NCBI GenBank assembly: GCA_977020255.1
Contig: CDROCS010000052.1
Span: 434,001-498,000 of the forward strand
From: Obrimoposthia wandeli
Taxonomy: Eukaryota
Direction of reading: 5' to 3'
DNA length: 64,000 bases
Shown: in pieces, positions 6,170-50,900 of the stretch
Layout of the letters: each line of letters opens with the position of its first letter
How positions within the stretch are numbered: position 1 is the first letter of the stretch
Notes under the pieces: model-generated
What the model was told of the DNA's origin: nothing
Seen by the model: the letters and a program-made list of their open reading frames with translations, nothing else
The model's database searches: none
Made by a program: the position numbers and the translations under genes

Positions 6170-7028
6170 TATCAGATAATTTCAAAATTTATGTTCATAT
6201 TTTGCTATTACATGTACAAATCTTACTTGTACTTCGTTTTAAATTTATTTTATTGATATTTAAAATAGTGTGTATTATTACTTAAGAACTTACCCGCTAA
6301 CTTAATATTTCATGATTTAAATCCAATTTGATTAGGTGTATTTTGACTCTCATTGTGACACTTTTATTGACCAATTACGAGTTAAATAATTTCAGTTGTT
6401 AAACAAGTAATTTACTATGTAGTTTTCTACTTAAATGTGTGTATGAAGAGTTAGCAGGACTGAAGGGTTAAACATTGACGAGTTAACCAAAATTTTCTGG
6501 ATCATGATAGCGGCTTTCAATAATCTGTCAGTGAATAAAACATGAAAGCTGACTGGAAATACGTCAAAATAATCATAACTGAAATCGTAAAGTGTTGCTT
6601 AAATATATATATTGGGTTAGAGTTGATGTACCTCTTTGGAAGGTTTTAAAACATTATCGATTTGGAGTGAGCTTAGTAAAATTTAATGCAAGATTATTTA
6701 AAAAAACCATAGCAGTTCAAATTAAGTTATATTTCTACAATTTTTGAATCGTACATATCGGTTAATATTCAAATGGCTACCTAAAACTAAGATACAAAAT
6801 ATAACATTAGTTGAAAATTGTGCTAAGTAATTTCAAGTTATTAATTTAAAACGGTTCTAAAACAAATATATGGTCACTTCTAAGTCTATGTATTTCTGGT
6901 TATCGTTTCGAGTAAACGCCATTTCATACTTAACGACGTTGGGAATGGGACCGTGATGGGTTTGTAAGTTTATAAAGTTATTAAAAAACTGAATTTAAAA
7001 GATGAATTTGTAAGTTTTGTAATTTAAG

Positions 7029-8546
7029 TTTATTTGATTTACTGTATGCTAATTGTGTCTGTGCGTTTTATCAGGATCGAACAGGTTGATTCATATTCAG
7101 CTGTCAGTTTGCTTCGTTTGCTTCGGTTCTGACCAAGGAAATATTATGTGCAAATTAAAATTAAAAAAATTTAAATAGTTAAATAAAAGCCCAGAAATGA
7201 AATTAAACTTGAGTTGATTAATCTCAGGTGACTTGGGCTGACTATAATAGTCCGAGTAACCCGAGGCACCACGTCGGCAGTGGTTTAGAACAAACATGGG
7301 GCGACAGCAAACTGAATTTATAGAAGTTTTAGAAAATCCAAAAAATTAAGCAGCGCTCATCGGCGTACAAGAAATAGACAAAAAAATGACCGCAGTAGAA
7401 GATACCACAAAAATTCAGGCTTCCAGCATTACACTGATCAAACTTTAGTTAATTAAATAAATAAATTAAGTAAATAGTTACTTGTTACAATGTACATGCT
7501 TGATAAATAACGAATATAGTATAGTCATTGTACTCAACGTTAACCTAAATTAGTTGATGAGTAGGCACTTTTGTAGTTTATCATAAATAGTAAAAGATGC
7601 TGGTGGTAATAATCAGATCAACATTTTTAATATATTTTTAGTTTTTTTACATGGAAAACATCAATTCACTAATTCTGCTTGTTAAAAGATATATTTTAAA
7701 ATGTTTACATAATCTTCAGTTCAAAGTTTCCAATGATACTTTTCAATTCCACTATAGAAATTTATGTTAGTTTTCAAAGAAGCTGAAATACAACTACACA
7801 GGACAATTGCAATTTTACTGTGGTTTTAATGGCTATTTAGCAATAAGTGTAATACTCAAATTCAATATCATTTAGTTAATTTCAGTTACAAATTCACTAA
7901 ATTCTGTTGAATGTACATTAATTAAAACATTACGCTAATATTTGTATTCTATCATTTAAATTTAAATCTACTGAGTTAGGAGTGTAAAGGTTTTAATACC
8001 AACTCTAGACGAGAATAATGACACTCGGGGAATTGTGTGTTTCTTTCTGTGAAAAGGAATTAACTTTCTTTACGTATTATTCATATAAATATAGCCGAGA
8101 TGTTAATTTTCTGCACCTGGGTCTTTTATTGCCCTCCCGACGTAACACGCCAACTAAAGAGTACGGGAAAACGATTGCAGTCCGTCTAACTTCCCAACAC
8201 CCAGGTCCAACTGCATAAGTGTCAAGCATATTCCCGCAAACCTTGTTACGTCTCAATTGTGTCACTTTCAATACATTGTGGCAGATGACAGTTCACTGAC
8301 ATGAAGAGAAAGCTGAAAATTACCCCGAGGCCAAATTTTGATTTGACACTGTTTATAGCAACATATATTTTCCTTTTCACCCTTCGTTCTGTTTTCCTCT
8401 TTCAATAGTTCAATACTTCCGCTCAACAAAATGACATCTAAAATATGACTGTAAATATAACAAAATGGCTTAAATAAAATGATTGTTATGGTACACTCAA
8501 TGCAATTTTAAAATCAGAGACAAGTTTTGCAGTCATTAAAGAAAAA
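7029..8546 (+). repeat. Left arm of a ~1.5-kb inverted duplication (partner 9508-11021)
   Basis: Near-identical reverse complement. ORFs 7097-7297(-)/10753-10953(+) are identical; 8077-8271(-)/9782-9976(+) differ by one residue. Confidence 0.95.
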
Positions 8547-8565
8547 AGGAGTGTTTCGGTGGTGT

Positions 8566-8974
8566 NNNNNNNNNNNNNNNNNNNNNNNNNNNNNNNNNNN
8601 NNNNNNNNNNNNNNNNNNNNNNNNNNNNNNNNNNNNNNNNNNNNNNNNNNNNNNNNNNNNNNNNNNNNNNNNNNNNNNNNNNNNNNNNNNNNNNNNNNNN
8701 NNNNNNNNNNNNNNNNNNNNNNNNNNNNNNNNNNNNNNNNNNNNNNNNNNNNNNNNNNNNNNNNNNNNNNNNNNNNNNNNNNNNNNNNNNNNNNNNNNNN
8801 NNNNNNNNNNNNNNNNNNNNNNNNNNNNNNNNNNNNNNNNNNNNNNNNNNNNNNNNNNNNNNNNNNNNNNNNNNNNNNNNNNNNNNNNNNNNNNNNNNNN
8901 NNNNNNNNNNNNNNNNNNNNNNNNNNNNNNNNNNNNNNNNNNNNNNNNNNNNNNNNNNNNNNNNNNNNNNNNNN
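8566..8974. other. Assembly gap (409 N)
   Basis: N run. Confidence 1.
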
Positions 8975-9064
8975 GCCCCGAAGGGGCGGGTGGTTGTCGG
9001 TGGGTGTTTCCATCCAACACCCATCGACTTTCACCCATCACCCGAGGTAGTCAGTGATATACAC

Positions 9065-9295
9065 GAGAGCGAGACATTCGCCCATCACCCAAGCAAGTCT
9101 GTGACCTATATGAGAGCGAGACATTCGTACATCGCCAAGCAAGTCTGTGACCTATATCAGAGCGAGACATTCGTACATCGCCAAGCAAGTCTGTGACCTA
9201 TATGAGAGCGAGACATCCGTACATCGCAGAGCTAGTCTGTGACATATATGAGAGCGAGACATCCGTACATCGCAGAGCTAGTCTGTGACCTATAT
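9065..9295. repeat. Minisatellite, 5 x 46-47 bp, subterminal to a Polinton end
   Basis: Unit (g/c)agagcgagacat(t/c)cgtacatcgc(ca/ag)agc(a/t)agtctgtgacctatat. Units start at 9065, 9112, 9158, 9204 and 9250. Confidence 0.95.
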
Positions 9296-9345
9296 CAGTC
9301 CCGAGCCCTTCGCGCTGATAGGCACGAAAAAATGTTAGGGGGACC

Positions 9346-9491
9346 CCCCTTGTCCTTTAAAACCGTGCATGTGTGTTGAGTGAAATTTCACTCCACACAC
9401 CTACACGAAATTTCACTCCACACACAATGCACGGTTTTAAAGGACAAGGGGCGAGGGGGTGTGTGGATTAGACCGGATACATCCACCTACT
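9346..9491 (-). mobile_element. Polinton-family terminus (TIR) with internal fold-back
   Basis: ...gtgtggattagaccggatacatccacctact ends at 9491 and is the reverse complement of the termini at 11800 and 40717. Confidence 0.85.
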
Positions 9492-9507
9492 TGGGAGTTG
9501 TTGTTAA

Positions 9508-11021
9508 TTTTTCTTTAATGACTGCAAAACTTGTCTCTGATTTTAAAATTGCATTGAGTGTACCATAACAATCATTTTATTTAAGCCATTTTGTTATATT
9601 TACAGTCATATTTATATGTCATTTTGTTGAGCGGAAGTATTGAACTATTGAAAGAGGAAAACAGAACGAAGGGTGAAAAGGAAAATATATGTTGCTATAA
9701 ACAGTGTCAAATCAAAATTTGGCCTCGGGGTAATTTTCAGCTTTCTCTTCATGTCAGTGAACTGTCATCTGCCACAATGTATTGAAAGTGACACAATTGA
9801 GACGTAACAAGGTTTGCGGGAATATGCTTGACACTTATGCAGTTGGACCTGGGTGTTGGGAAGTTAGACTGACTGCAATCGTTTTCCCGTACTCTTTAGT
9901 TGGCGTGTTACGTCGGGAGGGCAATAAAAGACCCAGGTGCAGAAAATTAACATCTCGGCTATATTTATATGAATAATACGTAAAGAACGTTAATTCCTTT
10001 TCACAGAAAGAAACACAATTCCCCGAGTGTCATTATTCTCGTCTAGAGTTGGTATTAAAACCTTTACACTCCTAACTCAGTAGATTTAAATTTAAATGAT
10101 AGAATACAAATATTAGCGTAATGTTTTAATTAATGTACATTCAACAGAATTTAGAGAATTTGTAACTGAAATTAACTAAATGATATTGAATTTGAGTATT
10201 ACACTTATTGCTAAATAGCCATTAAAACCACAGTAAAATTGCAATTGTCCTGTGTAGTTGTATTTAGCTTCTTTGAAAACTAACATAAATTTCTATAGTG
10301 GAATTGAAAAGTATCATTGGAAACTTTGAACTGAAGATTATGTAAACATTTTAAAATATATCTTTTAACAAGCAGAATTAGTGAATTGATGTTTTCCATG
10401 TAAAAAAACTAAAAATATATTAAAAATGTTGATCTGATTATTACCACAAGCATCTTTTACTATTTATGATAAACTACAAAAGTGCCTACTCATCAACTAA
10501 TTTAGGTTAACGTTGAGTGCAATGACTTTACTATATTCGTTATTTATCAAGCATGTACATTGTAACAAGTAACTATTTACTTAATTTATTTATTTAATTA
10601 ACTAAAGTTTGATCAGTGTAATGCTGGAAGCCTGAATTTTTGTGGTATCTTCTACTGCGGTCATTTTTTTGTCTATTTCTTGTACGCCGATGAGCGCTGC
10701 TTAATTTTTTGGATTTTCTAAAACTTCTATAAATTCAGTTTGCTGTCGCCCCATGTTTGTTCTAAACCACTGCCGACGTGGTGCCTCGGGTTACTCGGAC
10801 TATTATAGTCAGCCCAAGTCACCTGAGATTAATCAACTCAAGTTTAATTTCATTTCTGGGCTTTTATTTAACTATTTAAATTTTTTTAATTTTAATTTGC
10901 ACATAATATTTCCTTGGTCAGAACCGAAGCAAACGAAGCAAACTGACAGCTGAATATGAATCAACCTGTTCGATCCTGATAAAACGCACAGACACAATTA
11001 GCATACAGTAAATCAAATAAA
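9508..11021 (-). repeat. Right arm of the ~1.5-kb inverted duplication
   Basis: Reverse complement of 7029-8546 with scattered SNPs and small indels. Confidence 0.95.
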
Positions 11022-12189
11022 TCAAATTTTTGGTAGAAACTAGTCTTATCTCTAAAAGGCTTTTATGGGATAATTTATAAGAAATAGTTGGTTTTCAAAA
11101 AATACTTTATATCGGATACCTTTGTATATTCTTATTTTATTATAATTACTAGAAATAATTCGTATGTCAGTAGATATGTAGATTTATATTCAATTCAGAA
11201 ATGAATTACGTAATGGAGATTATCAATACCAAAAGAGTTGACATAAAGCTTTGTTTAGATAGCCTTATCTATACTGTTAAAGTTGTTTTTCTGAAATTAT
11301 TCTCCAAGATCAACATGGCATCCGACCGAGGAAAATAACTACGAACTTGTATACTGAACTCCCAACCTGACTTCGTAATCTTTGTGAGGACAGGTCTTCT
11401 GAGCGCAATTCCATCCCTGATTTCCTGCAAGGTGTTAGCCACAACTTTAGAGATGGACAGCCAAACATCTAAGCCTAAATGATTGATTTGCATTTAACTG
11501 TGCTGTACATATTGTTAATATGACCAAACTGTGTTACTTTGAGTGTTTTACTATTTGTTATTGGCCCCAAATATCAAGCTATCTATTTCCTATAAATTTT
11601 TCTAAAACTAAGATTTTCTGAACACTAACTATTACTAAGAAATTGACAAAAAAACCTGATAGCAAAAACAGCGTTTTCTACAAAAAAAAGTTTGAAACGT
11701 CAACTTTATAAAAAAGCCAGACCGAAGCGTCCTAATCCAAAATGTCTGTGTACCGTGATATATCAGTAGTTGAATCAATCATAATGCTGAATATGTTAGA
11801 GTAGGTGGATGTGTCCGGTCTAATCCACGCACCCCTCCCCGCCCCACACTGTCCTTTAAAACCGTGCATGTGTATGGAGTGAAATTTTCTACCCTCCCCC
11901 AACACTCAAAAAAACTAATTAACCCCATATAATACCCTTTAAAATTGAAAATCTCATAGTGCTCCCAAAAAAGGGAGGAAGGTCCTGAGAGGCCGTTTAG
12001 TGGGCCAACGCGTGCCCTCCGGGCCTGCGGTGGTTTGACGAGCAATACATATACAGGGTCGCGACAAATATTTTTCTTATAAGAATTTATATCTAGATAC
12101 ATATATATGGGGTCGAAATTTTTTTTAAATCATCAAATAAATAAATTGGAAATGATTTCAACATTTTCATTTTATTCGGATGAATTATC

Positions 12190-12330
12190 GTTGAGTCATA
12201 GGATGAGTCATCGATGAGTCATAGGATGAGCCATCGATGAGACATAGAATGATCTTGACTCATCATGACCTTAACCTCATGATGACCTCAAATGACCTTG
12301 ACCTCATGAGGTCATGACCTTAACTTTACC
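12190..12330. promoter_or_regulatory. Subterminal TGAGTCA / TGACCT motif array including the perfect palindrome AGGTCATGACCT (12309-12320)
   Basis: Directly visible and homologous to 3441-3660. It lies in a ~390-bp segment that is deleted from copy B. Confidence 0.45.
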
Positions 12331-12713
12331 TTAAATTACCTCTGGAAAAAAAATTATACCCTTCAAACATGTACGGTCAAGAAAATATTACTATTTTAAA
12401 TCCAAAGATATACATGTATTCAAACATTAACAAAAATTAAGAAAATACTATAAATTATTTGAATAATACGTTCTCATTGGACGTTGAACTTAAGCAACAA
12501 AAACTTAAGAAAATAATACTATTTTCAAATAAAATATTTTTTTTATCCAATGACATACTCGCATTCAAACGTAGTTAAAAAATTGATAAAAGCCTATGGA
12601 TTTTTCAAATAAATTATTTGAATAACCCGCTTTCATTGGACGACAAAAGAGGGTTAGTCTGTTGTTTTTTGTATATAAGGAGACCTCTTTTCATTATTTT
12701 TCATTAATCAAGA

Positions 12714-14842
12714 ATGGCAAATTTCAACAACGTCGATTTGGATGAAGAGATGGAGGTACATCTATATGGGGATCTCTCTCCAGTACAGCAGCGAACGCCA
12801 CCACCGGCGCAATACATGGACTTACTTAGTCAAGACTCGTCGGTGGTGAGCGAAAGAGTCGAAGGAGAAGCAGCAGCAAGAGCGGAGCTGTTAAAAGAAG
12901 AACCGCCATTGGCCAGCTCAACTCCGAGAGAAGAACCAAAGAGCGTGAGAGGTGGGGTACAGAGATCCCAATATATCGACCTGACTAGGCAGGTTTCGAT
13001 TGAGAATTGGGAAGACTGTACTCCCAGGCAGAACACAAAACCTACTCGTCCGGCAACTTCAGCAGTAGCAGCAAGGAGATCCAATCTCTTCGAGAATTTT
13101 GAGGCGGCAATGAAACGCCCCTGGAAATTGATCCCGCTGTCTCAGCCGGAGATAGTACTCGCACCAGACTCAGACGAGGAGCTATTCACCGATGACGTTC
13201 CGTCGGATGGTGAGGAGGACTTGACTCCATTCATTGATGAATGGAAACAGCCAAGTATCAGAGCACCAGGAGCCAACGATTCGATGGTGGCAGAATTGGA
13301 CGAGGACGAGTGGCGCCTGTTCACCGATGATTGGGATGATCTCACTCCCACTGCAACTCCTACTCCGATAGCCGACAATACGGTGCCTGATCCGTTCAGA
13401 GGCCGCAATCTCCGATACGTCCTGTTAGGAGAATAAAGGCGACGAATGAGGTTAGTCTATTAATTTATTTAAAATGTTTTTTAATTTCATTTTTAGAAAC
13501 TTCACTGGATTTGGCATCGTCAGTGACCACGGCGGAGAGGCTGATTGAACCGCAGTACTTGGCGAGTCAATATAGCCAGGATGATCCCAGGAGTGAGCAG
13601 CGATACCTACCGACTCCGGATAAATTTGAGGTAAATTATTATAAATTAGTTAATAATTTTAATTATTCACATAGGAACACGAATTGGTGGAGGAAATTTG
13701 GGAGGAGGCAACTCTCAGTCTACCCGTCGATAGGAAACAAGCGGTGGTTAAGAAACCTCGACGCCATCGGGTCAAAACCCACACGGTCCATCGGAAGAAG
13801 GCCAAGTTGGCGAAACAGGCTAACCTGCCCGTCATTGAGGTAAATTATTTTTATGTTTAAATTTTATTGATGTTTTTTGTTCCAGGAACCAATACAATTA
13901 ACTGAGGAGATATGGTGCAAAATTTATCCTTTCCCGCAAAAGCGAACGAGGTGGGCTGCTGTACGGAAGACGAGGCGTCTTAGAAAGGCAAAATCTTGTC
14001 TGCTCAAATCGGCCGAAGTAACGATAGAGCGGCAGGAAAGACTATCCGTATCAGATTATTGAGGTAAATTTTTAGATATTTAAATATTTTTTAAATAAAT
14101 GAACTTTATTAAAAATTTTATTAATGTTTTCTTTTACAGGAACCCGTCCGGATAATTGAGGAGACTTGGGGAGAAATCACTCCTTTTCCCAAGAAACGGC
14201 GAAGCGAGCAGAGGTGAAGAAGACGAAAAAAGACGCTCGAGAAAATTTAGCACCTCATTTCTTCTGAGGCGGTGATTGGACAGAAGGAGATTCTCCCATC
14301 TCCAGTGGACGACGGTTCAATTCTATACGAGAGGATCCCAGTCTCACCGATCGAGATTAGTCCGCCATCAAGTCAACGACGCCTGCAGGAGACATCACCG
14401 GCTTCTTCTCGTCCAACAACCAGCCAGAACTTAAAGAGGGCCTGGGATGAAGCTGGATTGGATGAATTCCTTGCGGAACTGGATACACCGGCAAGGCTTC
14501 CAGATTCGCGAATGCAACAAGATGCCGTGTCACGCCAGCTTCAGCGTGAGAAGGAGGAGAAACAGAAGAAAGCTCCGCGGAAGAGGAAGGCTACTGCTTC
14601 TATGTCGGGGCCATCAACATCGGCTGCACCTCCTCCCAAAAAGTTGCGGCAACTATTGCCAAAACCTGAGGGAAGGACAATTGCTACAAACCAACTGGTG
14701 AATCCGAAAAAGAAACCGGGCGGCCAAAGAAGGAGCCAGTACCGCTTTCTCAAATAATACTTAGTCGGAGGGATTTCGATGAGGATGATCCCAATGAAGA
14801 CTTTGTAAAGATTTTTAAGAATATAATTTATAAAAATTAATT
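12714..14842 (+). pseudogene. Five-exon intrinsically disordered protein gene of the Polinton (copy A), several 1-nt frameshifts
   Basis: Exons 12714-13450, 13497-13630, 13675-13839, 13886-14063 and 14140-~14842. GT-AG AT-rich introns of 46, 44, 46 and 76 nt. TATATAA at 12672. Confidence 0.8.
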
Positions 14843-15120
14843 TCATATGTTTTCTTCTTAATATTTATTAAAATACCATCTTTAAGTTTATTAAAATATC
14901 AAGATGAAAAAAATAGTTAATTTATTCGACTGTGATTGGATTAATAAGGAATCATTTAAATTTTTTTAGGTTTAAATATAAATGCAATGATTAGTTATAG
15001 ATTTATTAAACTTTCATTTGATACATAAAAATATATCATTTAATTGCCTGTGATTGGATTAAAAATATCTTAAATTTATATATATAGGTTCAAATTTATT
15101 AACCTCTCCATAATTTAAAA

Positions 15121-15426
15121 ATGGAATTCATTAAATTGCAAAGTTTGGTAACGAAGATAGAAGCAAACATCAGAATAAATGAGAAGAAAGGGGACTTAAG
15201 AAAGAGGGTCCTCAATCAAAATTTGTATACTGCTGTCGCGACCGAGTGGAATCGCCGGGTGGAGATACAGGATAGGAGGCTAGCAGAACGCCGTCGAATC
15301 GTGGAGTGGAATAAGAAGATCGAATTGGAAAAAAGGAAGGTGGATGAAAACAGAAGAGAAGAGATGGAGGATATTCGGCGAGTGGCAAGAAAGAGAATCC
15401 TACAAATTAAACCGGAAGAGGTTTAA
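15121..15426 (+). CDS. Small charged coiled-coil protein of the Polinton family (101 aa)
   Basis: Intact ORF, E/K/R-rich, homologous to 1357-1690. TATA-like tatatatag lies upstream. Confidence 0.65.
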   Translation: MEFIKLQSLVTKIEANIRINEKKGDLRKRVLNQNLYTAVATEWNRRVEIQDRRLAERRRIVEWNKKIELEKRKVDENRREEMEDIRRVARKRILQIKPEEV

Positions 15427-15891
15427 TTTGTTTATTTTATTTTTTTTTGATTATTATTTTTTCTTTATTGATTATATATAGTGTTACATAATTGTCTAAA
15501 TATTTTACATAATTGTCTAAATATTTTACATAAGCATACTAAATATAAACAATTTTATATATAATGTTTTTTGTAAAATAGATAATAAAATTTGGAATAA
15601 ATTATACATAAAATTATCTCCAGATTTAATGGAATATCATAAAAAAATTACTTTTCAGAAATTGATACTGAGGGAATTGTTGGAGATAAATTATGTAATT
15701 TAATTTCGAAATTTTTAGGTATGTTTACATTTAATATAATTTATTTTAATATTCTTAGGAGAATTGACAATATATACCAATATTAACATGAAAGACTGAA
15801 TCCTGAGTACTTTGTTATTTTAATAAATTTTTGGTTAATGATTTTTTTTATTCGTTATAAACAAAGGGATTTACTACAAATTTGGGTAATT

Positions 15892-16370
15892 ATGCAGGAA
15901 TATATCATAGATTTTGAGGCTTTCGTTAACAAAAATGGTGAATATATTATAAAAGAATTATGTATTATGGATGTATGCGACGTTTATCCTCCTTTGCATT
16001 TCATATTTCCAATAGATATACCGTTTAAAAGTTTAGATTATAAGAAAGAATTTACTAATTTATATCTAACTAATTACTTTCATTTATTAAAATGAAAAGA
16101 AGGACATAAGGCTTTTTGTGAAATATGTATTTTCGATACAATAAAATCTAATTTTGATATAGAAATGGAATTTTTTATATTTTAGATGAAATGGATGGCT
16201 AAAAGTATAAGACTTTAAAAAAATATTTTCCCAAATTGAGGTTGAATACTTTAAATATTTCAAGTGATCATCTATTAAAAATTCCACGAAATATATGTGT
16301 CCATATCGTAGTCATGGTGACCATTGCGCATATAAAAAAAGTCTTTCTTATTATTATTTGACATGTAGAT
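15892..16370 (+). pseudogene. DEDD/DnaQ-like exonuclease-fold protein of the type seen in invertebrate Mavericks, disrupted
   Basis: MQEYIIDFEAF...GEYIIKELCI (ExoI-like DxE) at the N-terminus and CPYRSHGDHCAYKK at the C-terminus after frameshifts and stops. Assignment is by motif resemblance only. Confidence 0.5.
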
Positions 16371-17974
16371 AAACAATTCTTCTAATTGGAGAAATAAGAT
16401 AATTTAAAAAATCGATTTTTCATCCAATTACAATTGAGCCTTTTAATTGGAGGAATACAATATATTAAAAATAATATTATCAACCAATCACAGATAAACA
16501 ATCCTTCTCAGTGGAGGAATAAATTCAATTTTGTAATCCAATAGGAAAGAGCATGTGTGCATAAATTTTAGTATATAAGCAAACACTTTCTTCATTAAAA
16601 TCCCTGACTATTTGAAATAATGACTATGGTAAGAATCTATACTTATTATTTCTTTATTGTACGACTGTATCTCATATATTCTGATCATTAGAACTTCTAA
16701 ATCAGAAAGTTATCAAAATATCGTTTGTCCTAAAATATGTATTTATATTTCTGAGTCTATTGTCAGTGGAACACTATTGAATATGGCTCCTAAATCTACA
16801 TCAAGGCCTATCATATTTCTGTTGACTCCACTCTTTATGTAAACGAAACATGATATCCGTGAATATTTGAAATAAAACAATGCAAAAGATTTTTGAATTT
16901 TTCAGAATAACTCATTGAAAAATTACCTAGATTCATGACAATACTCGTCTCACGATTAGTGACTGAATTTATTTTCTTTGAGTCACAAGAAGTTGTTCGT
17001 CAGGAACGATATTTAATCTGGAATATGTTTGAATATATTTCAATCTAGAACCAACGGAAATTGATTTTAATAACTTTTTCCTTAAACCGTTTTTGTCGAA
17101 ATTCAGTGCAATTCATGTATCTAAATATGTTATGTTTTTGATGGAGTTGGTTTTCAAGACCAATGATTGGATCGCGGGTCTTACTAGTTGCAAATGGTAC
17201 ATTCTACTGCAGCACCTTGTGGCACGTAACTTATCCTGAGACTTTCTGAACAGGATCAAACATTAATAATTTGTAAGTAGCTGACATGTCTGGAATATAT
17301 ATCGTAACATGACATTAAACCTTAAATTAAAAGCTCACTTAGAGTTCGAATAATGGATACCAGGTGTTAGTTTCAGGAGAAAGTTATTTGCCGCTACTAG
17401 GAACCACTGGTTTCACTTATTACAAGTTGCTCAGGACACGAAATCTATCTGATGACATAATTAAATACTTATTTGAACAAAGATACAAATGGTTTCTTTC
17501 TAAATATTCCTTAGTCGTTAATGCGTAGTAAATAGTCATCATTACACTAATACAACTATTAAACAAATCCATTACTTTTATTTTCTTAAATTGCGATTCC
17601 CCTCCTTATCGTACATCAAATTGGATCAAATATTAAATGCGATAAAAACATTGTAATCTTCTCTAATTTTAGACTCAATACTACACATAAGATATATATC
17701 CTATCTTAAGATAAAATGAAGCTGTAACATTATGAGACGAGCATCGATCCAACGTTTAGTATTACAAAGTAAAATACAAATTTTAAATTTATAAAAATTT
17801 CCAAATTAAAATATGATTTTTTTTGGTTAATACAATTTTGTTAAAAAAGATTTAATCATTTCCACACGGCTAACATATTGAAACATTGTAAATTTCGATG
17901 TTTTAAATCTCATAAATAATAAGAGTACTATTATTTGTTTGAGGATAAACAACCGATCAAAAGAAGATGTAGCT

Positions 17975-39181: not shown

Positions 39182-39264
39182 AATAATAAGAAGAATATTG
39201 TTTATAAGCATTTTATTAATATATACAACATAAATGAATTAAAAATTGATACAGAAAAAGTTAT

Positions 39265-40690: not shown

Positions 40691-41146
40691 TAATTTTAAG
40701 CCATTTTAACGACATTAGTAGGTGGATGTGTCCGGTCTAATCCACACCCCTCCCCCCACTGTCCTTTAAAACCGTATATGTGTGTGGAGTGAAATTTCGT
40801 GCATGTGTGTGGAGTGAAATTTCGTGTATGTGTGTAGGTTTAAAAAAATTGAAAAAGCAACGAAGGGGAGGGGGAGTACCCACCACCCCACAAAAAAATT
40901 TAAAATTGTACTTTGAAATTTACCGCGAATCTCAATAGTGGTTAGAGAAGACCACAGGAATCCATATTGGCCCCGACGGCTTATTGCAGACGAGATTTCA
41001 AAAAATATATTACTACTATTTTTAAGAAAGATTTTAGATTACTACATGTTAAATATTTAGGCCAAATTTATAAGAGAAAATTAGATCTATATAATTTAGA
41101 GGAGAAAAAACAAAATACGAGTCAAAATTATTTTTCAAAACATTTA

Positions 41147-41455
41147 TTAAACATAAAACAACATATTGGCTTTCCTCAAAGTCCAAAGAGGCTGCATTTT
41201 CCAGTCATCAACAAAATATCCATTGAGACGTATTGAGATATTCCATAGTTCTTCATCTAGAATTGGAGCAATCAAATATCCTAGATCATCTTTAAAATCC
41301 AGACTGGGATCAGTTTCAAGCTGGAAACAATTTCCTTCATATACATAAACAGGAATGTAAAACCCCAAATTATTTTTCAATTGATCAATATCAGATGTTG
41401 TTAAAATTTCGATGAGATATTTATTCTCCACTTTTGATATTTTCACAGGATTCAT
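41147..41455 (-). CDS. Small Polinton protein, putative OB-fold/ssDNA-binding-like (102 aa)
   Basis: Intact ORF. The C-terminal LWNISIRLNGY..PLWTL is shared with 41703-42062 and 38880-39130. The fold is an inference. Confidence 0.55.
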   Translation of the reverse strand: MNPVKISKVENKYLIEILTTSDIDQLKNNLGFYIPVYVYEGNCFQLETDPSLDFKDDLGYLIAPILDEELWNISIRLNGYFVDDWKMQPLWTLRKANMLFYV

Positions 41456-41702
41456 AACTCGTATAATTTGATGCCTCTTTAATATATTACATAGTTTTTT
41501 TTTGAAATTCTATTGGATAATAAAAATTTCCTACACATCTCAGAAGAGAATCCATTCTAAAATAAGGAAACTGATTAAAAAACAATGTTTATAAAAAAAT
41601 ACATATAAGATACATATAAGATACAAAAAAAGCAAAACTGATTATTAATTGCCAAATGAAAGAAACATAGTAAAACCGATTACAATTTATTACATGAAAT
41701 AT

Positions 41703-42062
41703 TTAAAACATAGAAATATGAAGACATTCAATTTTCCCCATAGGCAACTTTGTTCCCATTTCATCTTTCTTGTAACCATAAAGTCGAATTGTTACAGTCC
41801 ATTGCTTCTTTTTTGGAAACGCATCAATATCAACATATCTTCCATAGTCATCTAGAAATGCTTCATCGGCTCCTCGGATATAAAATTCGTTCTTATTGAA
41901 AGTAAAATTCGGAACTGCCTTTCCAACATTTATATGTCTTCGTCACCGCTTATTATCCATTGGCTATCGTACATCGTTGATTATTGTTTTTGATATGAAT
42001 GCATTTACGGTGATTTGTCCTCCAATGGCGCATTCTTTTATATTAATTTCTAACAAAGACAT
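41703..42062 (-). pseudogene. Paralog of 41147-41455 (119 codons, two in-frame stops)
   Basis: MSLLEINIKEC...FYIRGADEAFLDDYGRYVDIDAFPKKKQWTVTIRLYGYKKDEMGTKLPMGKIECL. Confidence 0.55.
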
Positions 42063-42247
42063 GAATATCATTGGTTAATATATATAAAGCATTGATTGGA
42101 CTAAATCCATATTAAAAATCAAATTTGATTGGAAGAAATATATCATCCAATTATAATAGGTTTGCAAGATAATTACAAGAAACGTGCAATAAAAAAACAG
42201 GTTCAGATATATATAAAGAAGATTTTATAGAATACAATTTTAGTCTA

Positions 42248-42739
42248 ATGAAACTCGTAAATATAAATTATAAAGTTAGAACAGAAGATGATGTTTCGTA
42301 CTTACCATTCAATGAATGGAAGCCGATACAATATGTGGAAAAGTTTGACAATTTTACAGTTGTTATTTTTCCTACAGGTTAGTTTTTTATTTTATTTCAA
42401 TATTGAATTCTTTTAGGAAATTGTCGTGTTATGAGATGCAAAATACCAATGCTTGGGTTCAATTTACCATTTGGAATTCGAATCACTGCAATACAATAAA
42501 TCACGATTTCGGCTAATCTTGGGAAACAGATAAATCTTTTTAAAACTGCAGAGAAAATGAAAGTAGAATGCATGCTTGAACCAGAAATTTTTCCTGCTCT
42601 CAGTTATTTGAAGTTTAAACCGCTATGTGTAAATATATTTTCCAGTGGTAAATTGGGATTGAAAAATTTTGATTATCCAGACATTGTTGATTTGATTTTA
42701 GAAAATATATCTTATTACATCTTGTTATCTTTTCTATAA
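42248..42739 (+). pseudogene. TATA-binding-protein (TBP)-like gene with one 39-nt intron and one premature stop
   Basis: Exons 42248-42377 and 42417-42739. MKLVNINYK...VIFPTG|NCRVMRCK...IQ*ITISANLGKQINL...EPEIFPALSYLKFKPLCVNIFSSGKLGLK parallels the TBP LIFSSGKMVCTGAK and [27 protein letters not shown] motifs. Confidence 0.75.
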
Positions 42740-42758
42740 ACTATCCCGTTTAAACTTA

Positions 42759-42974
42759 TTGTTTCAAATGAATAATACTATAAATAGAGACAATGAAGTG
42801 GATCGTCTTGTCGACGAAATATTTTCAGGAAAAATTAGGGATAAACAAATTTTAGCAGAATTTAAAAATAATGAGATAACAAGAGATAACATTGATATAT
42901 TGGTTAGATCACACGTCATTCGAGAATTTAGAAATCGTACACAAATAAATAAAATTATAGCCAAAATTCATTAA
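42759..42974 (+). CDS. Small conserved Polinton ORF ('VRSHV' family)
   Basis: EVDRLVDEIFSGKI...RDNIDILVRSHVIREF; homolog at 39265-39470. Confidence 0.6.
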   Translation: MFQMNNTINRDNEVDRLVDEIFSGKIRDKQILAEFKNNEITRDNIDILVRSHVIREFRNRTQINKIIAKIH

Positions 42975-43076
42975 TTATTTTTTGTATTTCATCTACAATA
43001 GCTCTAACATTGTACATTTCAATAAGGAAACTTCTATGATAATATAAACAATATTAAAAATGAAAGGGTATATGCA

Positions 43077-43609
43077 ATGGAGCTAAATAATAATGCTGTA
43101 TTTCAAATAGTTGGTTAACCAAAACAGAAGTTTGCAAGTTGAAGGGAATAAAATTTATTGAAGGATTTGAAGCAAATTGGTGTGAAAGAGTGAAAAAAGA
43201 TGATGTAATAATAATTGATGATTTGTATCAGGAAGCTAACAAGGAATCGGACTTTAATAATTTATTTACAAAGATTGCAAGACATCGTGAAGTAACAGTT
43301 ATATTTATCACTCAAAATCTTTTTCACCAAGGAGGTCACCATAGAACAAGAAATCTTAATGTACATTACTTAGTTTTATTTAAAAATCCTAGAGATCAAA
43401 CAGTTGTAGATTTCGTGGTCAAACAGGCATTTCCCAAAAATAAGAACTTTCTAGTTGATTCATTCCATGATGCTGCTAAACAAGCACATGGGTATATATT
43501 TATTGACTTTACACAAGCTTGCCCAGATGATTTACGTGCTTTAACCAACATATTTAATTCTAAGAGAGTAACTGTTTATAAACAAATAGAGAACAATTAT
43601 AAAAAATAA
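43077..43609 (+). pseudogene. FtsK/HerA (A32-like) DNA packaging ATPase with Walker A region deleted
   Basis: Walker B IIIDD, FTKIARH, ITQNLF, YLVLFKNPRD and GYIFIDF are present. The start MELNNNAVFQIVG is followed directly by a stop and mid-protein sequence. Confidence 0.9.
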
Positions 43610-43616
43610 ATTTGCA

Positions 43617-43757
43617 ATGCCTTTTAAGAAGTTGATAGTAAAACGTAAAGTAAAATCTAAGAAATCAAAGAAAAGAATCATTAAGAAAAAAGAAGTGAAA
43701 AAATTAATCAAATCTGTAGTTAGAAATAAAAGAAAACTTAAATGTCTTCGAATATAA
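43617..43757 (+). CDS. Very basic 46-aa peptide (putative virion core / DNA-condensing protein)
   Basis: MPFKKLIVKRKVKSKKSKKRIIKKKEVKKLIKSVVRNKRKLKCLRI, located between the ATPase and pX-like ORFs. Confidence 0.45.
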   Translation: MPFKKLIVKRKVKSKKSKKRIIKKKEVKKLIKSVVRNKRKLKCLRI

Positions 43758-43769
43758 ACAATATTCGAA

Positions 43770-44117
43770 TTGAACCTTTTTATTAAAATGAAGAAAATAC
43801 AAAGAAGCATACCCTATGTTAAAGCTTTGGTCAAAGCCTCTTCTCATAAGAGAATGATTATTCTTAAAGCATTTCCATCTTTTGTTGTAGATGATTTATT
43901 GGAAGTTTTGTATAATATAGTTTTGGGTCGAGTAAAAGTTGGAAATCGGAAAAATATATTAAAGAAATATAGAAAAACTCTTCTAGATATTGCTAATGTA
44001 AAAAGTAAAAAAAGGAAACGAAATATTATTCTTAAACATAATGGTGGTTTCATAGGGGCTGTTATTCCAGTTGTTGCTTCAATTATCAGTAGTATTATAG
44101 CTGCGACACGTTCATAA
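43770..44117 (+). CDS. Polinton core protein, adenovirus pX/mu-like C-terminus
   Basis: Basic body ending in KHNGGFIGAVIPVVASII: a GG-F protease-site-like motif plus hydrophobic tail, as in the conserved small Polinton/adintovirus ORF. Confidence 0.65.
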   Translation: MNLFIKMKKIQRSIPYVKALVKASSHKRMIILKAFPSFVVDDLLEVLYNIVLGRVKVGNRKNILKKYRKTLLDIANVKSKKRKRNIILKHNGGFIGAVIPVVASIISSIIAATRS

Positions 44118-44203
44118 ACAATTATTTATAAAATCAGTTAAAGATATGGGTACTAACCCTTCTTTACCTAAATTTAAATTTTCTTTCTATTCAAATTGTT
44201 GTA

Positions 44204-45231
44204 ATGGAGAAGATATGGTTCAATCCAAAAGATCCAATTGGCTACACAGGAGTTTCAAAATTAGCAAAATGAACAAAACAAAATTACAAGAAAACGCAGA
44301 AATGCCTGAGCGACCAGTTAGCCTACAGTCTGAACAAGCCGATGAGAAGAAGGTTTCCAACTAGAGCTTACAAAACCAGTGGTCCTAATAATTTATGGCA
44401 AATTGATTTGATGGAGATGATCCCATATTCTTCCATTAATAAGGGATATCGATATATTTTAACATGTATTGATGTATTTAGCAGGTTTGCTCGTTTAATT
44501 CCAGTTAAAGCAAAGTCTTCAATAGCTATGCTTGAAGCCGTTAAAGAAATATTAAAAGAGGACATTCCACAAAATGTGCAAACTGATTTAGGAAAAGAAT
44601 TTTATAATAAGCAAGTTCAATCATTAATTAAACAAAATAATATAAATCACTACTCTGTGTTTTCACAATACAAAGCAGCAGTAGTAGAAAGATTTAATCG
44701 TACTTTAAGAGATTGAATAAAAAGGTATTTCACAAAAGAAGGAAATAAAAAATGGATCCAAGTTTTACCTAAAATAATACATGCATATAATCACTCTGAA
44801 CATAGAGGTCTCAAGGGAATGATACCTGTTGATGTTACTAATAAAAACTATATGGATATTTGGATGGACATGAATAAAAAAGAAAATATTAAAAAAGCTA
44901 AATATAAGAAAAACAAATATGTTCGAATTTCGAAAATTAGCTCTACTCCATTTATTAAAACTTTGATCAGAATTGGAGCGATGAAATATTTTGTATAAGT
45001 AAAATTGATCAAAAGAGTAATCCAATAATGTATACTATTAAAAATGTTGACAATAATATCATTCACGGTAAATTTTACGAGCAATAACTACAAGTAATAT
45101 CAAATAAACCTAGCGTTTTCCGTATTTAAAAAATATTAAAATCTAAGGGTACCGGTAAACATAAACAATACTTTGTTAAAGGGCATGGTTATTCAGACAC
45201 AACTTGGATATCAGCATCTAATATAATATGA
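44204..45231 (+). pseudogene. Retroviral-type (rve) integrase with C-terminal chromodomain-like region, several stops
   Basis: WFNPKDPIGYTG start; WQIDL, CIDVFSRFA, VQTDLGKEFYN and VVERFNRTL (D,D,E); KILKSKG..QYFVKGHGY..TWISASNI tail. The stop TGA overlaps the penton ATG (ATGA). Confidence 0.92.
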
Positions 45232-45975
45232 AGTCTATGTATATGGTTTTACCTAGTAACGGATGCCTGAAGACTCAACCAGATAATGACGTTAGTAGCT
45301 TTATTATCGATTGGGAAAATCCTATACTTCTGCAAGGAGAATGGGAAGCACCTTTAACAGAATTTTCCTTTTATTATTCTCCAATAACTATTAGAAAAAA
45401 CTCACATATTTCGTTTACAAAAGAAGTTGATCATGAAAATACAACTGAAGTTGTGATCGGGTTTGATAGTAAAGGAAAATTATATTACAATTGTAAAGAT
45501 AAAGAAGTGAAAGTAATATATGAAAAAAACAAAGTCAGATTTAAAAATAGATCAAAACATTTTTCAACCTATTCAAATTATATTTGCATCTGAAAGAGAA
45601 GCTCTTCAATTCGGTTTTGACAGTGGACATGTAGTAGGTATGAAGAGATCTGATATTGCCTCATCTAAATCGTTTAAAAATGTTCCTGATAGAGTAACAA
45701 GTGCGTTTTTAGTTGAAACGAGACCAAAGTATGTAGTGGAACTGAAAATGTTTTCAAAAGATTATAAATTAGATAGAGAAGTGAATTTCTGTAAATTAAT
45801 ACAGAAGGAATGTAGTGAATATTTCGATAAATATGTAACATTAAAAAATGGTAAAATAACGTTTACAGTAAAGAGCAATATAATACGCATTTTATTTGAT
45901 GATAAACTCGCTAAAAACCTTGGTTTAAACAGAAATAACAGAAACCCATACTGCAATAAAAACCATAAAAGCTAA
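45228..45975 (+). pseudogene. Minor capsid (penton-like) protein N-terminal part, frameshifted and truncated
   Basis: MYMVLPSNGCLKTQPDNDVSSFIIDWENPILLQGEWEAPLTEFSF matches the Polinton F.x.LPSN....P.N..S.F...L..P..L.G.WEV.L.E motif. Confidence 0.75.
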
Positions 45976-46022
45976 AAATAAGGCAAAACTTTTAAATGCT
46001 GTTAATCATTTATATATTTATA

Positions 46023-47978
46023 CTAATTTAATAGAACCAATTGTACTGGTTCCTTCTTCTTTGGCCTGGCCGGTTTCTTTTTCGGCTTCACCGGTTGCTT
46101 TGTAGCAATTGTCCTTCCCTCAGGTTTTGGCAATAGTTGCCGCAACTTTTTGGGAGGAGGTGCAGCCGATGTTGATGACCCCGACATAGAAGCAGTAGCC
46201 TTTTTCTTCCGCGGAGCTTTCTTCTGTTTCTCCTCCTTCTCACGCTGAAGCTGGCGTGAGACGGCATCCTGTTGCCCTAGCGAATCTGGAAGCATTGCCG
46301 GTGTATCCAGTTCCGCCAGGAATTCGTCCAATCCAGCTTCATCCCAGGCCCTCTTTAAGTTCTGGCTGGTTGTTGGACGAGGAGAAGTCAGTGATGTCTC
46401 CTGCAGGCGTCGTTGACTTGATGGCGGACTAATCTCGATCGGTGAGACTGGAATCCTCTCGTATAAAATTGGACCGTCGTCCACTGGAAATGGGAGAAAC
46501 TCTTGTCGTCCAATCACCGCCTCAGAATAATGGCCAATTGAGGTGTTATATTTTCTCGAGCGCCTCGTCTTCTTCATCTCTGCTCGCTTCGTCCGTTTCT
46601 TTGGAAAAGAAGTAATTTCTCTCCAAGCCTCCTCAATTATCCGGACAGGTTCCTGCAGAGAAAACATTAATCAAATTAATTTATATAAAAAATATTTAAA
46701 TATCTAAAATTTTACCTCAATAATCTTATACGGAAGTTTTTCCTGCCGCTCTATCGTTACTTCGCTCGATTTGAGCAGACAAGATTTTGCCTTTCTAAGA
46801 CGCCTCGTCTTCCGTACAGCAGCCTGCCTCGTTCGCTTCTGCGGGAAAGGATAAATTTTGCCCCATGTCTCCTCAGTTAATTGTATTGGTTCCTGCAACA
46901 AAAAACATAAATAAAATTTTAAAATATAAATAATTTACCTGTTTCCCCAACTTGGCCTTCTTCCGATGGACTGTGTGGGTTTTGACCCGATGGCGTCGAG
47001 GTTTCTTAATCGCCGCTTGTTTCCTATCGACGGGTAGTCTGAGAGTTGCCTCCTCCCAAATTTCCTCCACCAATTCGGCTTCCTATGTGAATAATTAAAA
47101 TAATTAACTAATTTATAATAATATACCTCAAATTTAGCCGGAGTCGGTAGGTATTGCTGATCCCTCCTGGGATCATCCTGGCTACATTGACTCGCCAAGT
47201 ACTGCAGTTCAATCGGCCTCTCCATCGTGGTCACTGACGGTGCCAAATCCAGTTGAAGTTTCTGAAAATGAAAATAAAAAACATTTAAAATAAATGATTT
47301 CTAACCTCATTCGTCGCCTTTATTCTTCTAACAGGACGTATCGGAGATTGCGGCCTTCTGAACGGATCGGGCACCGTATTGTCGGCTTGCGGAGATGGTG
47401 TTGCAGAGGGAGTGAGATGATCGTTGGCTCCTGGGGTCTCCGACACTTGGCTGTATCCATTCGTCGATGAATGGAGTCAAGTCCTCCTCACCATCCGACG
47501 GAACGTCATCGGTGAATAGCTCCTCGTCTGAGTCTGGTGCGAGTACTATCTCCGGCTGAGACAGCAGGATCAATTTCCAGGGGCATTTGATTGCCGCCTC
47601 AAAATTCTGGAAGAGATTGGATCTCCTTGCTGCTACTGTTGAAGTTACCGGACGATTGGGTTTTGTATTTTGCCTGGGAGTACAATTCTCAATCGAATCC
47701 TGACTAGTCAGGTCGATATATTGGAATCTCTGTATCCCACCTCTCACGCTCATTGGTTCTTCTCTCGGAGTTGAGCTGGCCAATGGCGGTTCTTCTAGCA
47801 ACAGCTCGGCTCTTGCTGCTGCTTCTCCTTCGTCTCCTTCACTCACCACCGATGAGTCTTGACTAAGTAAGTCAATGTACTGTGCCAGTGGTTGCGTTCG
47901 CTGCTGTACTGGAGAGAAATCCCCATATAGATGTACCTCCATCTCTTCATCCAAATCGACGTTGTTGAAATTTGCCAT
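46023..47978 (-). pseudogene. Five-exon intrinsically disordered protein gene (copy B), about 585 aa, single +1 frameshift in exon 1
   Basis: Exons 47978-47306 (673 nt), 47261-47127 (135), 47082-46939 (144), 46892-46716 (177) and 46652-46023 (630). Phase-0 GT-AG introns of 44, 44, 46 and 63 nt. TATATAA at 48020-48014. Confidence 0.85.
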
Positions 47979-50900
47979 TCTTGATTAATGAAAAATAATG
48001 AAAAGAGGTTTCCTTATATACAAAAACAACAGACTAACCCTCTTTTATCGTCCAATGAAAGCGGGTTATTCAAATAATTTCTTTGAAAAATCCATAGGCT
48101 TTTATCAATTTTTTAACTACGATTCAATGCGAGTATGTCATTGGATAAAAAATTATTTTATTTGAAAATAGTAATATTTTCTTAAGTTTTTGTTGCTTAA
48201 GTTCAACTTCTAATGAGAACTTATTATTCAAATAATTTATAGACTCTGTATATGTGTTGCTCGTTAAACCACCGAGGGCCCGGAGAGCACGCTTTGGCCC
48301 ACTAAACGGCCTCCCAGGACCTTCCTCACTTTTTTGGGAGCATTATGAGATTTTCAATTTTAAAGGGTGTTATATGGGGATAATTAGTTTTTTGAGTGTT
48401 GGGTGGGGGAGGGGGGTAGAAACTTTCACTCCACATACATGCATAAAATTTCACTCCACACGGGTGTGGATTAGACTGGACACATCCACCTACTTATGTG
48501 TATTAAAATGTCATTTGAGGAAGGAGACTACACTGATCATATTATTCATAAGTGAAAAACAACATAACTTTAAATGTTATGGCATTTTTTGTACATTTAA
48601 GTTTTTGCGATGTACCGAGTTGGATGACTAAGAAAGTAACTTGACAGTGGCGGAGGCTGTATTTTTATTTCCCACATCAAATCACAACCACAGTTTTCGT
48701 TCAATGGATTGTATATATAAAATAGTACAGATATTATTTAAGAAAAAACATCCTGTGAATGAACAAAATCTGAAGAAATGTTTTATTGCCAGAGCAATCT
48801 CCCGCCCAAAAGCTGAACCAAAGAACTTTAATTACATTTCTATATTTTCCACTTTATCTAGTCATCAAGATGTAAAAAAATCATTTTGAATTCAATATTG
48901 TAGTAAACCAGTGGTGCTTAATTTTCCATATTTGAATGGAGAAACTTCTGATATATCTTATTGTATTCTGTGCTGGTAATGCAAATACAATTTTTGGCGG
49001 ACTTGTCAAAAAGAGCAGCAATATTGTTTATTATAAAAATTAAATATACTTAGAAAAAGAAAATTTTCTGATGTTGGTTGTGCAGCACCTATCGTAAGCA
49101 ATGCAATTCCTTTTTCTATCACTATTGAAATCACAATACAAAAAATCTATAGACATTTTTACATATACAGTAAAAGTTAAAATATTGATAAAATTTTGTG
49201 TAGATGCAGATATACGTTATAAAATAATTTTGGGAAATACAAATGTCGTTCCCTACACTCGTAAGATATTTAATTTTATTTAAACCTCTAAAATCGTACT
49301 TTTTGTTAATTGATAAGTGTCAAAAAAACAATTGAGTTTTTTTGACAAAGAATGTTCAGAAATTTGGTTAAAATTCATGCATATTAAAGCTTCAATATTC
49401 CATAGTAGGCGAAACAATTGTAGGCGAAAATAAAGACAATTATACAAATCGAAGAAGCCCTCAATCCATTAAAAATGAATATAAAAAAAGATTAGTGCAA
49501 AAATATTTTCCACAATTTATAAATTTAGATATTTAAAAAATTGTTAAATGAGGACAAATTTACGAATTATGGAGTCAAATACATTTTATTAGAATTGCTA
49601 TAAATATTTTAAACAATGATCAACACATTTTGAGGACATTTTACCTTTTAGTTGGGTAAATTTAAAATCGATTGTTTTTTATGGGATAAAATTGAGAAAA
49701 GTGAAAAAATTGAAATAAATCTTTGCAAATTTTTAAAACATTCATTAATAGAAAAATGATTTATTTTATGAATTTACATATTTTAAAATTTTGTAAGTTA
49801 AAATAAAATGTCCTAATCGAAGCAAAATGAGATGAGATACAATCTACACTGAGTAGAGATTTTTAAACATTTTCAAATTAAAGATATCCCTTCTGAAAAC
49901 GTAAAAATGCAGAGTTTGTTATGTAAGCCTGGAAAATATGCTACATGCAAAATTATTTTCTCACTAGTTAATAATTTGGAGACAAATGAAATACGCAATT
50001 ACATGTTGATACAATAAAAGAATAGGTTATGGTGTATGGAAATTTCCAGTTTTGTGACAATTTTTATGCATATATATGCAATTAAGGAAGAAACTCAAAA
50101 AAATTACATGGACATAAAAAATACTGCTAAAAAGAAGCCGGATTCACATGTTTTTGATTAAAAAATGTTTTGTTCATGTATAATATTATGTTTCTAGGTA
50201 TTGATGTTGGAATTCACTATTTTCTTTTGTTTGTTTAAGTTTTCTATTTCATTTTAATTCAGTTCAATAAGTACGTGTAACGACACATTGATTAATTTGA
50301 AGTTATTATGAAACTTATATTCAGTAGCAAACAATGTAATCAAATTAAACAAAACTGATTATCAGAGTTACGAAAAAATTAAATTTTAAAAATAAAGCTA
50401 CTTTTATTAAAACAAGGCAGGTATGCAAAGACCATATAGACTGGACTTTACAGAATTGGAAGAATGCTGCTTTTAGTGATTAAGTTTTACTTGAAAAGGT
50501 AACGAAACGATGTATTTGGGTCACAAAATATATGAACATTTCTTGTTCCCGTTAGGTTTTCATTTTAGACATGTCATCTAAAATATAGGATACACGGCCA
50601 GATGAACAACTGATTAATCACAATATAAAATAAGACTAATGTTACTTGATGTTATTATATAATTTGAAAACTTTAATTTTGATCCATCATCTAAATGCCA
50701 AAACGATGTTTAACAATTACCTTTTAATAATTAGCTCACGTTTGTATGTAGTATTTAAGCATAAAACTCAACCTTATTAAAGCAAAAGATTAAAGTTTAG
50801 CATATAAGTATTTTTTATTGAAATATCATAAGTTGTAAACAAGTTAACAAATAACCTAGTATAAAAAGACGGGTTTACGTAAAATATTTTCCTGGACCCC

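Follow-up and report, generated by a model that had tools for sequence, protein, structure and literature searches.

A gene with five exons, lying just inside the terminus of a Polinton element in Obrimoposthia wandeli, is supported by sequence conservation among element copies as a real, selected Polinton accessory coding gene. Its four introns are inferred to be spliced, a prediction drawn from their splice sites, their phase and the selection acting on the exons. We give a probability of about 45% to the reading in which the product is an early, nuclear, mostly disordered regulator that uses repeated short motifs to bind the SUMO machinery of the host and keeps the element DNA expressed. 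The starting point was a 64,000-nucleotide stretch (contig CDROCS010000052.1, positions 434,001 to 498,000; the window), which contains two copies of the gene, copy A and copy B.

Two copies of a five-exon gene in the window

Copy A, on the plus strand, begins with an ATG at 12714, 914 bases (~0.9 kb) inside the terminus at 11800. Exon 1 (12714..13450) encodes an acidic, probably disordered region and carries a frameshift near 13400. After intron 1 (13451..13496, 46 nt), exon 2 (13497..13630) contains SQ residues, lies outside the repeat described below and is frameshifted near its start. Intron 2 (13631..13674, 44 nt) leads to exon 3 (13675..13839), the first copy of a repeated module with an acidic EE..W start and a basic tract, and intron 3 (13840..13885, 46 nt) to exon 4 (13886..14063), the second module copy, which is missing in four-exon copies of the gene and in copy A has a frameshift near 14045. 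Intron 4 (14064..14139, 76 nt) is a duplicate of intron 3. Exon 5 (14140..14840) encodes the third module copy, an S/P/T-rich stretch, two short helices, a long helix, a basic NLS-like region and an acidic-hydrophobic tail; in copy A it is broken between ~14200 and 14260 and again near 14740. All four introns are in phase 0, and their GC content is 11-17%, compared with 46-53% in the exons.

Copy B (46023..47978, minus strand) is 89-93% identical to copy A. It starts with an ATG at 47978 and has introns at 47305-47262, 47126-47083, 46938-46893 and 46715-46653, with exons 2-4 of 135, 144 and 177 nt. A frameshifting deletion interrupts its exon 1 near 47420, and its 3' end is cut near 46043. The match to the gene family ends there (~46043), at the junction with the minor-capsid region of the opposite element arm, so the final codons and the stop of copy B derive from a deletion junction.

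A preliminary description of this DNA had placed two copies here with the same four AT-rich GT-AG introns and with frameshifts at different sites. We recovered the coordinates, phase and layout in both copies, and both are indeed broken, at different places. The single spliced reading frame also stands, but its length, given as about 590-630 residues, is better put at ~640 codons, the sum of the usual exon lengths. Exons 2-5 of copy B had been described as exact multiples of three, which is true of exons 2-4.

The element that carries the gene

The terminus next to copy A (11800..11881, plus strand) begins AGTAG and has a terminal inverted repeat of ~82 bp; a second terminus (48413..48494, minus strand) lies upstream of copy B. 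In one whole sister element the two inverted repeats are 82 bp long and 90% identical, and target-site duplications of 6 bp were found at three of the five terminus pairs examined (matches of 6/6, 5/6 and 5/6). These termini and duplications confirm that the host element is a Polinton. The opposite arm (40717..46040, plus strand), with a terminus, a TBP-like ORF, an A32-type ATPase, an rve integrase and a probable minor capsid region, abuts copy B directly. No target duplication is present at the ends of the 40717-48494 pair, and the stretch fits one internally deleted element. Downstream of copy A, a coiled-coil-like ORF and an exonuclease-like ORF occupy 15103..16658 (plus strand), after which the element breaks off.

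The integrase matches Pfam rve with 49 bits, and the ATPase matches Pox_A32 with 28.6 bits, above the cut-off, in a sister copy. A DNA_pol_B_2 match (E 5e-4, below the cut-off) was obtained on a fragment, alongside an endonuclease VII match; the window itself has no PolB. ORFs at the expected capsid positions had no Pfam match and no protease was seen; the capsid genes are labelled as we presume them from the layout, and the exonuclease, also without a Pfam match, is likewise our assumed label. Whole elements measure ~16-18 kb. Their left arm runs from the terminus through the end gene, the coiled-coil-like ORF, the exonuclease-like ORF and a Cys/His and acidic gene to pPolB, and the other strand carries probable capsid genes, the integrase, the ATPase, the TBP-like ORF and the second terminus.

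The gene family is present in high copy number, with 9800 first-look candidates in the genome, 40 of which were scored and 30 taken as loci. A terminus lies within 1.5 kb upstream of the gene at 26 of 29 loci of the five-exon form and at 16 of 25 loci of a second subfamily, and between the two there is no conserved ORF (the longest, of 26-111 codons, varies). A TATA-like box, found in copy A at 12672..12679 (plus strand), 42 nt before the ATG, is present in 24/26 and 14/16 of the copies with a terminus in reach. The gene is thus the first inside the terminus and stands behind a TATA box, as had been described, not only in the window but at most loci. Tandem TGAGTCA/TGACCT repeats at 12192..12320 (plus strand) form a candidate enhancer that is restricted to the five-exon subfamily; we take TGAGTCA to be AP-1-like and TGACCT to be nuclear-receptor-like. 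A shuffle P value for this array was set aside, given its tandem expansion and its absence from the four-exon subfamily. A second array of the same repeats lies at 3442-3616 of the window. CCAAT boxes upstream of the gene are no more frequent than chance.

The gene is richer in GC than the core genes (45-53% versus 29-36%). Its neighbours on the same arm, the coiled-coil-like and exonuclease-like ORFs (15103-16095 in the window), have net dN/dS values of 0.12 and 0.21 between subfamilies. In several copies a 40-nt GT-AG candidate intron precedes the exonuclease-like ORF. A second multi-intron gene lies directly before pPolB in a sister copy (L037:1950-3060), at a position that corresponds to sequence downstream of the break at 16658. 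An intron comes after the start codon of this gene, then a Cys/His region and four acidic Trp repeats, and then tandemly duplicated phase-1 exons rich in Ser/Thr/Ala, leading towards the pPolB N-terminus. Judged together with the mini-introns of these neighbours, the end gene suggests that the whole arm of this Polinton family may be spliced.

Splice sites in other copies

We aligned 31 five-exon copies, comprising the two in the window plus 29 further loci, chosen as the best among 40 scored from the 9800 first-look candidates. Donors are GT in 31, 30, 30 and 27 of the 31 copies for introns 1-4, and acceptors are AG in 30, 29, 30 and 30. Across these copies the four introns are 44-76 nt long, AT-rich and all in phase 0, and the exon junctions mostly have GAG before the donor GT and GAA or AAA after the acceptor AG. 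The commonest lengths of exons 1-4 are 738 (12/31), 135 (24/31), 165 (29/31) and 177 nt (25/31), all multiples of three. Most intron lengths, on the other hand, are not multiples of three, and intron 4 has an in-frame stop in 30/31 copies; retention of an intron would therefore shift or stop the frame.

Because the 31 copies are ~92% identical, the agreement of their splice sites mostly reflects shared descent, and the real test is the comparison of subfamilies. For this we used the second subfamily, represented by 25 loci that are ~79% identical to the first and have three introns. The GT/AG ends are kept in both subfamilies (31 and 25 copies). Not one of the 31 copies combines an entirely open frame with the full set of eight splice dinucleotides. 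In four sequencing runs from one sample, which behaved as DNA and are uninformative on splicing, no predicted intron was among the 15 joints listed; a read joint at 13877-14138 in the same runs corresponds to loss of exon 4 at the DNA level.

Selection on the coding frame

Net divergence was calculated as divergence between subfamilies minus decay within them, with 31 versus 22 copies after three near-duplicates had been dropped. Over 512 codons, net dN/dS between subfamilies is 0.27 (CI 0.20-0.37). The values for the four exons compared are 0.23, 0.54, 0.16 and 0.34, the second of these being exon 2, whose interval (0.19-1.47) by itself includes 1. Within the subfamilies dN/dS is 0.68 and 0.70, as expected since dead copies decay. 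Net change at codon positions 1/2/3 is 0.073/0.051/0.217, or 0.077/0.050/0.181 when CpG sites are excluded, and in all four exons compared the change is greatest at third positions, also without CpG sites. The low dN/dS, taken with the third-position excess exon by exon, indicates that each exon was coding in the phase predicted by the splice sites. The preliminary description had held that a genuine gene should show conserved splice sites in other copies and purifying selection on its spliced frame; GT/AG ends occur in nearly all of the 31 copies and in both subfamilies, and purifying selection is seen between them.

A repeated exon module and repeated loss of exon 4

One module of ~55 residues occurs three times, as exon 3, as exon 4 and at the start of exon 5; it is laid out as an acidic-hydrophobic start (EE..W), a basic tract and an LP..IE end. 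Intron 3 and exon 4 form a duplicate of the unit made of intron 4 and the start of exon 5 (69-73% DNA identity). Exon 3 is a third, older copy, which against a profile built from exons 4 and 5 reaches 19.3 bits, compared with 13.5 for the best of 2000 shuffles; exon 2 is unrelated to the module. Exons 4 and 5 differ by a net 0.53 (1.15 at third positions and 0.34 at first and second positions), whereas exon 5 differs between subfamilies by 0.15. The duplication is therefore older than the subfamily split and was itself constrained. This three-fold repeat had been overlooked in the preliminary description, which found no recognisable domain; as far as matches in domain libraries go, that statement holds.

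The second subfamily lacks exon 4 and so has four exons and three introns. At its single junction in place of exon 4, the intron resembles intron 3 (net 0.10 versus 0.30) and the exon resembles exon 5, a pattern that fits an origin of the four-exon form through loss by recombination between the repeats. Among 34 further loci, 32 could be classed, 20 as five-exon and 12 as four-exon. Trees need three changes of exon number when built on exon 1 (at least 2 forced) and five when built on the last exon (at least 4 forced), which means that loss of exon 4 recurred or that the region recombines; exon 4 is missing in many copies and in more than one lineage. In two four-exon elements (L091/L092 and L097/L098) compared with five-exon elements, the left arm has a net dS of 0.10-0.42 while capsid and integrase have ~0. 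These two elements suggest that the left arm may have been exchanged between subfamilies as a cassette. Because all introns are in phase 0, module exons could be duplicated, deleted or skipped with the frame intact, and a change in exon number would let lineages tune the count of binding and basic modules.

The predicted protein

Structure modelling of exon 1 and of the last exon gave pLDDT values of 46 and 57 and pTM values of 0.11 and 0.16, without a globular fold. The secondary structure is limited to short helices plus a single long one, modelled with confidence, in the last exon. The models are consistent with a largely disordered product, and low pLDDT also follows from the shallow alignments used (14 and 9 rows). 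Exon 1 contains 19% D+E with F/W patches, exons 3 and 4 contain 25% K+R, and cysteine is below 2.5% in each exon.

Three SIM-like stretches lie in exon 1. In copy A (plus strand) the first YIDL-type motif, at 12813..12839, reads YMDLLSQDS and is followed by an acidic S-x-x-D stretch; the second, at 12972..12998, is mutated to YIDLTRQVS; the third stretch, EIVLAPDSDE, lies at 13149..13178. The family form YIDL(L/T)SQDS, occurring twice (QYIDLT/QYIDLL), is invariant between subfamilies, and the two may be one duplicated motif. Over the 28 columns of the three stretches, net amino-acid change is 0.003 compared with 0.10 elsewhere (P 0.004 against random windows, an optimistic value, as are all our motif P values, since the patterns were chosen after the sequence had been seen). 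Further hydrophobic-acidic stretches, PIQLT and VRIIEE, occur at module starts. A parallel SIM pattern of the ELM type, in the form assumed here, does not match the YIDL motifs and finds only SPIEIS in exon 5. Scans of the open exons for LXCXE, CR1, Rb-groove, CXXC, PxDLS, PxLxP, HCF, PIP and PxVxL patterns gave no match, and SQ/TQ enrichment is not significant (8.2 versus 5.0, P 0.1). Apart from those of PMC8502044, the patterns used are our assumed forms.

With respect to the protein, the preliminary description is borne out in its general picture of a disordered, motif-rich product with a basic C-terminus: the models lack a fold and exon 5 encodes a basic NLS-like region. Its two SIM-like YIDL(T/L)SQDS motifs are intact in copy B and unchanged between subfamilies, although both are mutated in copy A, and the disorder and motif scan it had suggested agrees on disorder but misses the YIDL motifs with the assumed SIM pattern. 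Its acidic patch DDWDDL must be given up, for it is private to copy A; the other open copies aligned read DDWDG or a close variant, on which account we also dropped an LC3-binding reading of this patch.

Searches for relatives and comparison with known systems

Searches with the last exon against longer proteins, and with the exon-1 and module alignments, found no relative, and the gene had no match among viral contigs, phages and Pfam. The best hit in PDB had E 0.5, and searches of the Atlas gave either nothing or one match of 0.79, below use. The sole match of exon 1 among 1.84 billion representatives, a repetitive bacterial-type protein whose score is the sum of 11 repeats, was rejected. 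Searches of the genome itself scored the top 40-150 of thousands of candidates, a depth at which element copies could hide a distant host paralogue. The literature searched contains no description of the gene, though a comparable gene without a name might figure in the supplements of PMC8502044 and 10.1101/2024.03.25.586562. Within these searches the gene is without a known relative and its exon-repeat architecture is new.

Intron-bearing, GC-rich cargo genes (wasp proteases and krma kinases) adjoin the terminal repeat in nematode Mavericks (10.1101/2022.07.12.499685). The two share their position at the terminal repeat, GC-richness, poor conservation and introns of spliceosomal type (predicted here), in elements whose core genes are long ORFs. 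The end gene differs in lacking an enzyme fold, in that no cellular relative was found, and in an exon number that arises from tandem intron-exon duplication and varies among lineages. Vertebrate Mavericks resemble the element in having two convergent gene arms, accessory end regions, 6-bp target duplications and a size of ~16 kb, and they are reported to be without introns (PMC8097293). The claim that multi-intron genes are unusual in Polintons is consequently right for vertebrate Mavericks, but the nematode cargo genes and the neighbouring genes with mini-introns speak against it. The introners described from dinoflagellate elements (PMC11957031) and the group I introns of cryptophyte PLVs (PMC12220804) are phenomena of another kind.

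E1A-like 'Oncoid' genes upstream of PolB have been proposed for adintovirus/Polinton elements (PMC8502044), and the idea of an E1A parallel is therefore not new. The end gene shares with Oncoids the position upstream of PolB, the restriction to short motifs and a proposed parallel with E1A/E7/LT. Unlike Oncoids as characterised in that paper, it has no LXCXE, no CR1 of the form (DEN)(LIMV)XX(LM)(FY) and no paired CXXC, and it is multi-exon and encodes ~640 residues. Judged from these predicted features, it is not an Oncoid, as all three motif features are lacking and only the position agrees. With adenovirus E1A it has in common that it is first at one end, spliced (as predicted here), disordered and basic in its C-terminal region, and its YIDLT shares the IDLT core with the EVIDLT of E1A that binds UBC9, disturbing polySUMOylation (PMC5930299, PMC5030357). 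It differs from E1A in showing no detectable homology and in lacking Rb motifs, the zinc finger, PxDLS and PxLxP, and its product is more than twice as long, with repeated exon modules. The parallel with E1A drawn in the preliminary description is thus sound as regards position, splicing (as predicted), disorder, the basic C-terminal region and a single motif, but fails for the Rb, zinc-finger and CtBP motifs, and no homology was found. The gene is not an E1A homologue, though it may work like E1A.

The closest parallel for the variable number of exon-encoded repeats is EBNA-LP of EBV, a viral nuclear regulator linked to relief of nuclear-body repression, which has a variable number of tandem exon-encoded repeats (PMC5834210). 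Its sequence is unrelated, and its repeats are, in that account, near-identical and have their own promoters, whereas the end gene has two or three diverged one-exon modules.

Possible function

In the SUMO-directed reading, early timing would follow from the position as first gene and from the TATA box, and nuclear import from the basic clusters. Binding of SUMO or UBC9 is suggested by YIDL(L/T)SQDS occurring twice, by EIVLAPDSDE and by the hydrophobic-acidic module starts; several SIM-like motifs combined with basic modules would suit binding of SUMO-marked chromatin and relief of repression. The purpose of the gene would then be relief of SUMO-dependent silencing. SUMO is required in Drosophila for piRNA-guided transposon silencing (10.1101/533091). 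A SUMO gene is present in the host, the piece at hand being one exon without the last strand. In a wider proposal, which we regard as doubtful, an immediate-early slot like that of E1A exists in animal Polintons and is occupied here by an unrelated, home-built multi-SIM anti-silencing hub whose module number is tuned by in-frame exon duplication and repeated loss.

Other readings of the gene have to be set against the SUMO-directed one. An activator of the cell cycle or of transcription, of Oncoid or E1A type, is unlikely, though the gene sits upstream of pPolB, in the Oncoid position, and exon 1 is acidic (19% D+E) with F/W patches that might serve as activation domains. In such a gene DLLSQD/DLTSQD would serve a pocket protein as a degenerate LxCxE (LxSxD); an acidic S-x-x-D stretch comes after the first motif, as a CK2 site does after LXCXE, and LIN52 has a serine version, LxSxExL (PMC4421984). 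The motifs here, however, have D in place of E and no following hydrophobic residue, unlike LxSxExL; LXCXE, CR1, Rb-groove and CXXC are unmatched in all open exons; and a better candidate for an activator is the neighbouring gene that has Cys/His residues and acidic Trp repeats. We think it improbable that the product binds DNA or chromatin for the element, as a core or packaging helper whose three basic modules bind DNA while the acidic end acts as chaperone or autoinhibitor. The repeated, constrained modules and the 25% K+R of exons 3 and 4 would suit such a role, but the gene belongs to the polymerase arm and is remote from the capsid, ATPase and integrase genes, which are adjoined by a separate small basic core-like ORF, and its arm, not the core arm, appears to have been exchanged between subfamilies (in two four-exon elements only).

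Quite improbable, too, is that the element captured a host gene and carries it as cargo, in the manner of the nematode wasp and krma genes, without a regulatory role for itself. The gene does fit the cargo slot, being beside the terminal repeat, GC-rich (45-53% versus 29-36%), fast-changing and intron-bearing (10.1101/2022.07.12.499685). No cellular relative was found in our searches, with the proviso on element copies given above; at least intron 4 and exon 4 duplicate neighbouring parts of the same gene, and selection acted between element subfamilies. That the introns are unspliced, and the pattern an artefact of AT-rich insertions or decayed ORFs, we consider highly improbable: the count of 0/31 wholly open copies would agree with it, but third positions are in excess in the splice-predicted phase of each exon compared, the GT/AG ends are kept in both subfamilies, and retained introns would shift or stop the frame.

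The gene bears on how integrated Polintons become active and escape silencing by the host. If the wider proposal above is true, the multi-SIM hub would be the first candidate for Polinton escape from SUMO-dependent transposon silencing. The gene offers evidence of selection, a defined exon architecture and short conserved motifs, and it is a case, within a virus-like genome, of intron-exon units that were duplicated and lost with the frame intact. Polinton accessory genes are annotated as plain ORFs, and a gene split by introns of 44-76 nt is therefore invisible to such surveys.

Other elements in the window and the genome

A second, much younger Polinton family is represented at 38227-40311 of the window and at loci L081-L089, with 99% identical copies, 1510 candidates and a RING/IAP-like gene. 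The end gene had no match in the three elements of this family that were read, and is therefore not universally needed. A SIM-bearing terminal ORF of the younger family (L089:954-1658) was rejected as a relative, being intronless and resembling the opposite-end gene instead. The TBP-like ORF on the core arm (42500-42739 in the window; L036:2775-3473), which matches Pfam TBP with 44 bits in a sister copy, is found in the second family as well.

At 7021-11028 of the window an inverted repeat of 1.5 kb (99% identical) encloses a 46-bp tandem array, and a Polinton-like terminus lies at 9491. Exons of a host gene, which we take to be membrane-transporter-like, lie at 33875-37453, and their introns hold unrelated sequence. 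On two contigs, inverted gene pairs 18 kb apart were considered as long TIRs and turned out to be rearranged fold-backs. Large fold-backs at C4082:25500-50500 and C346:324500-349500 have 4 kb arms that are 97-99% identical and contain rearranged Polinton fragments.
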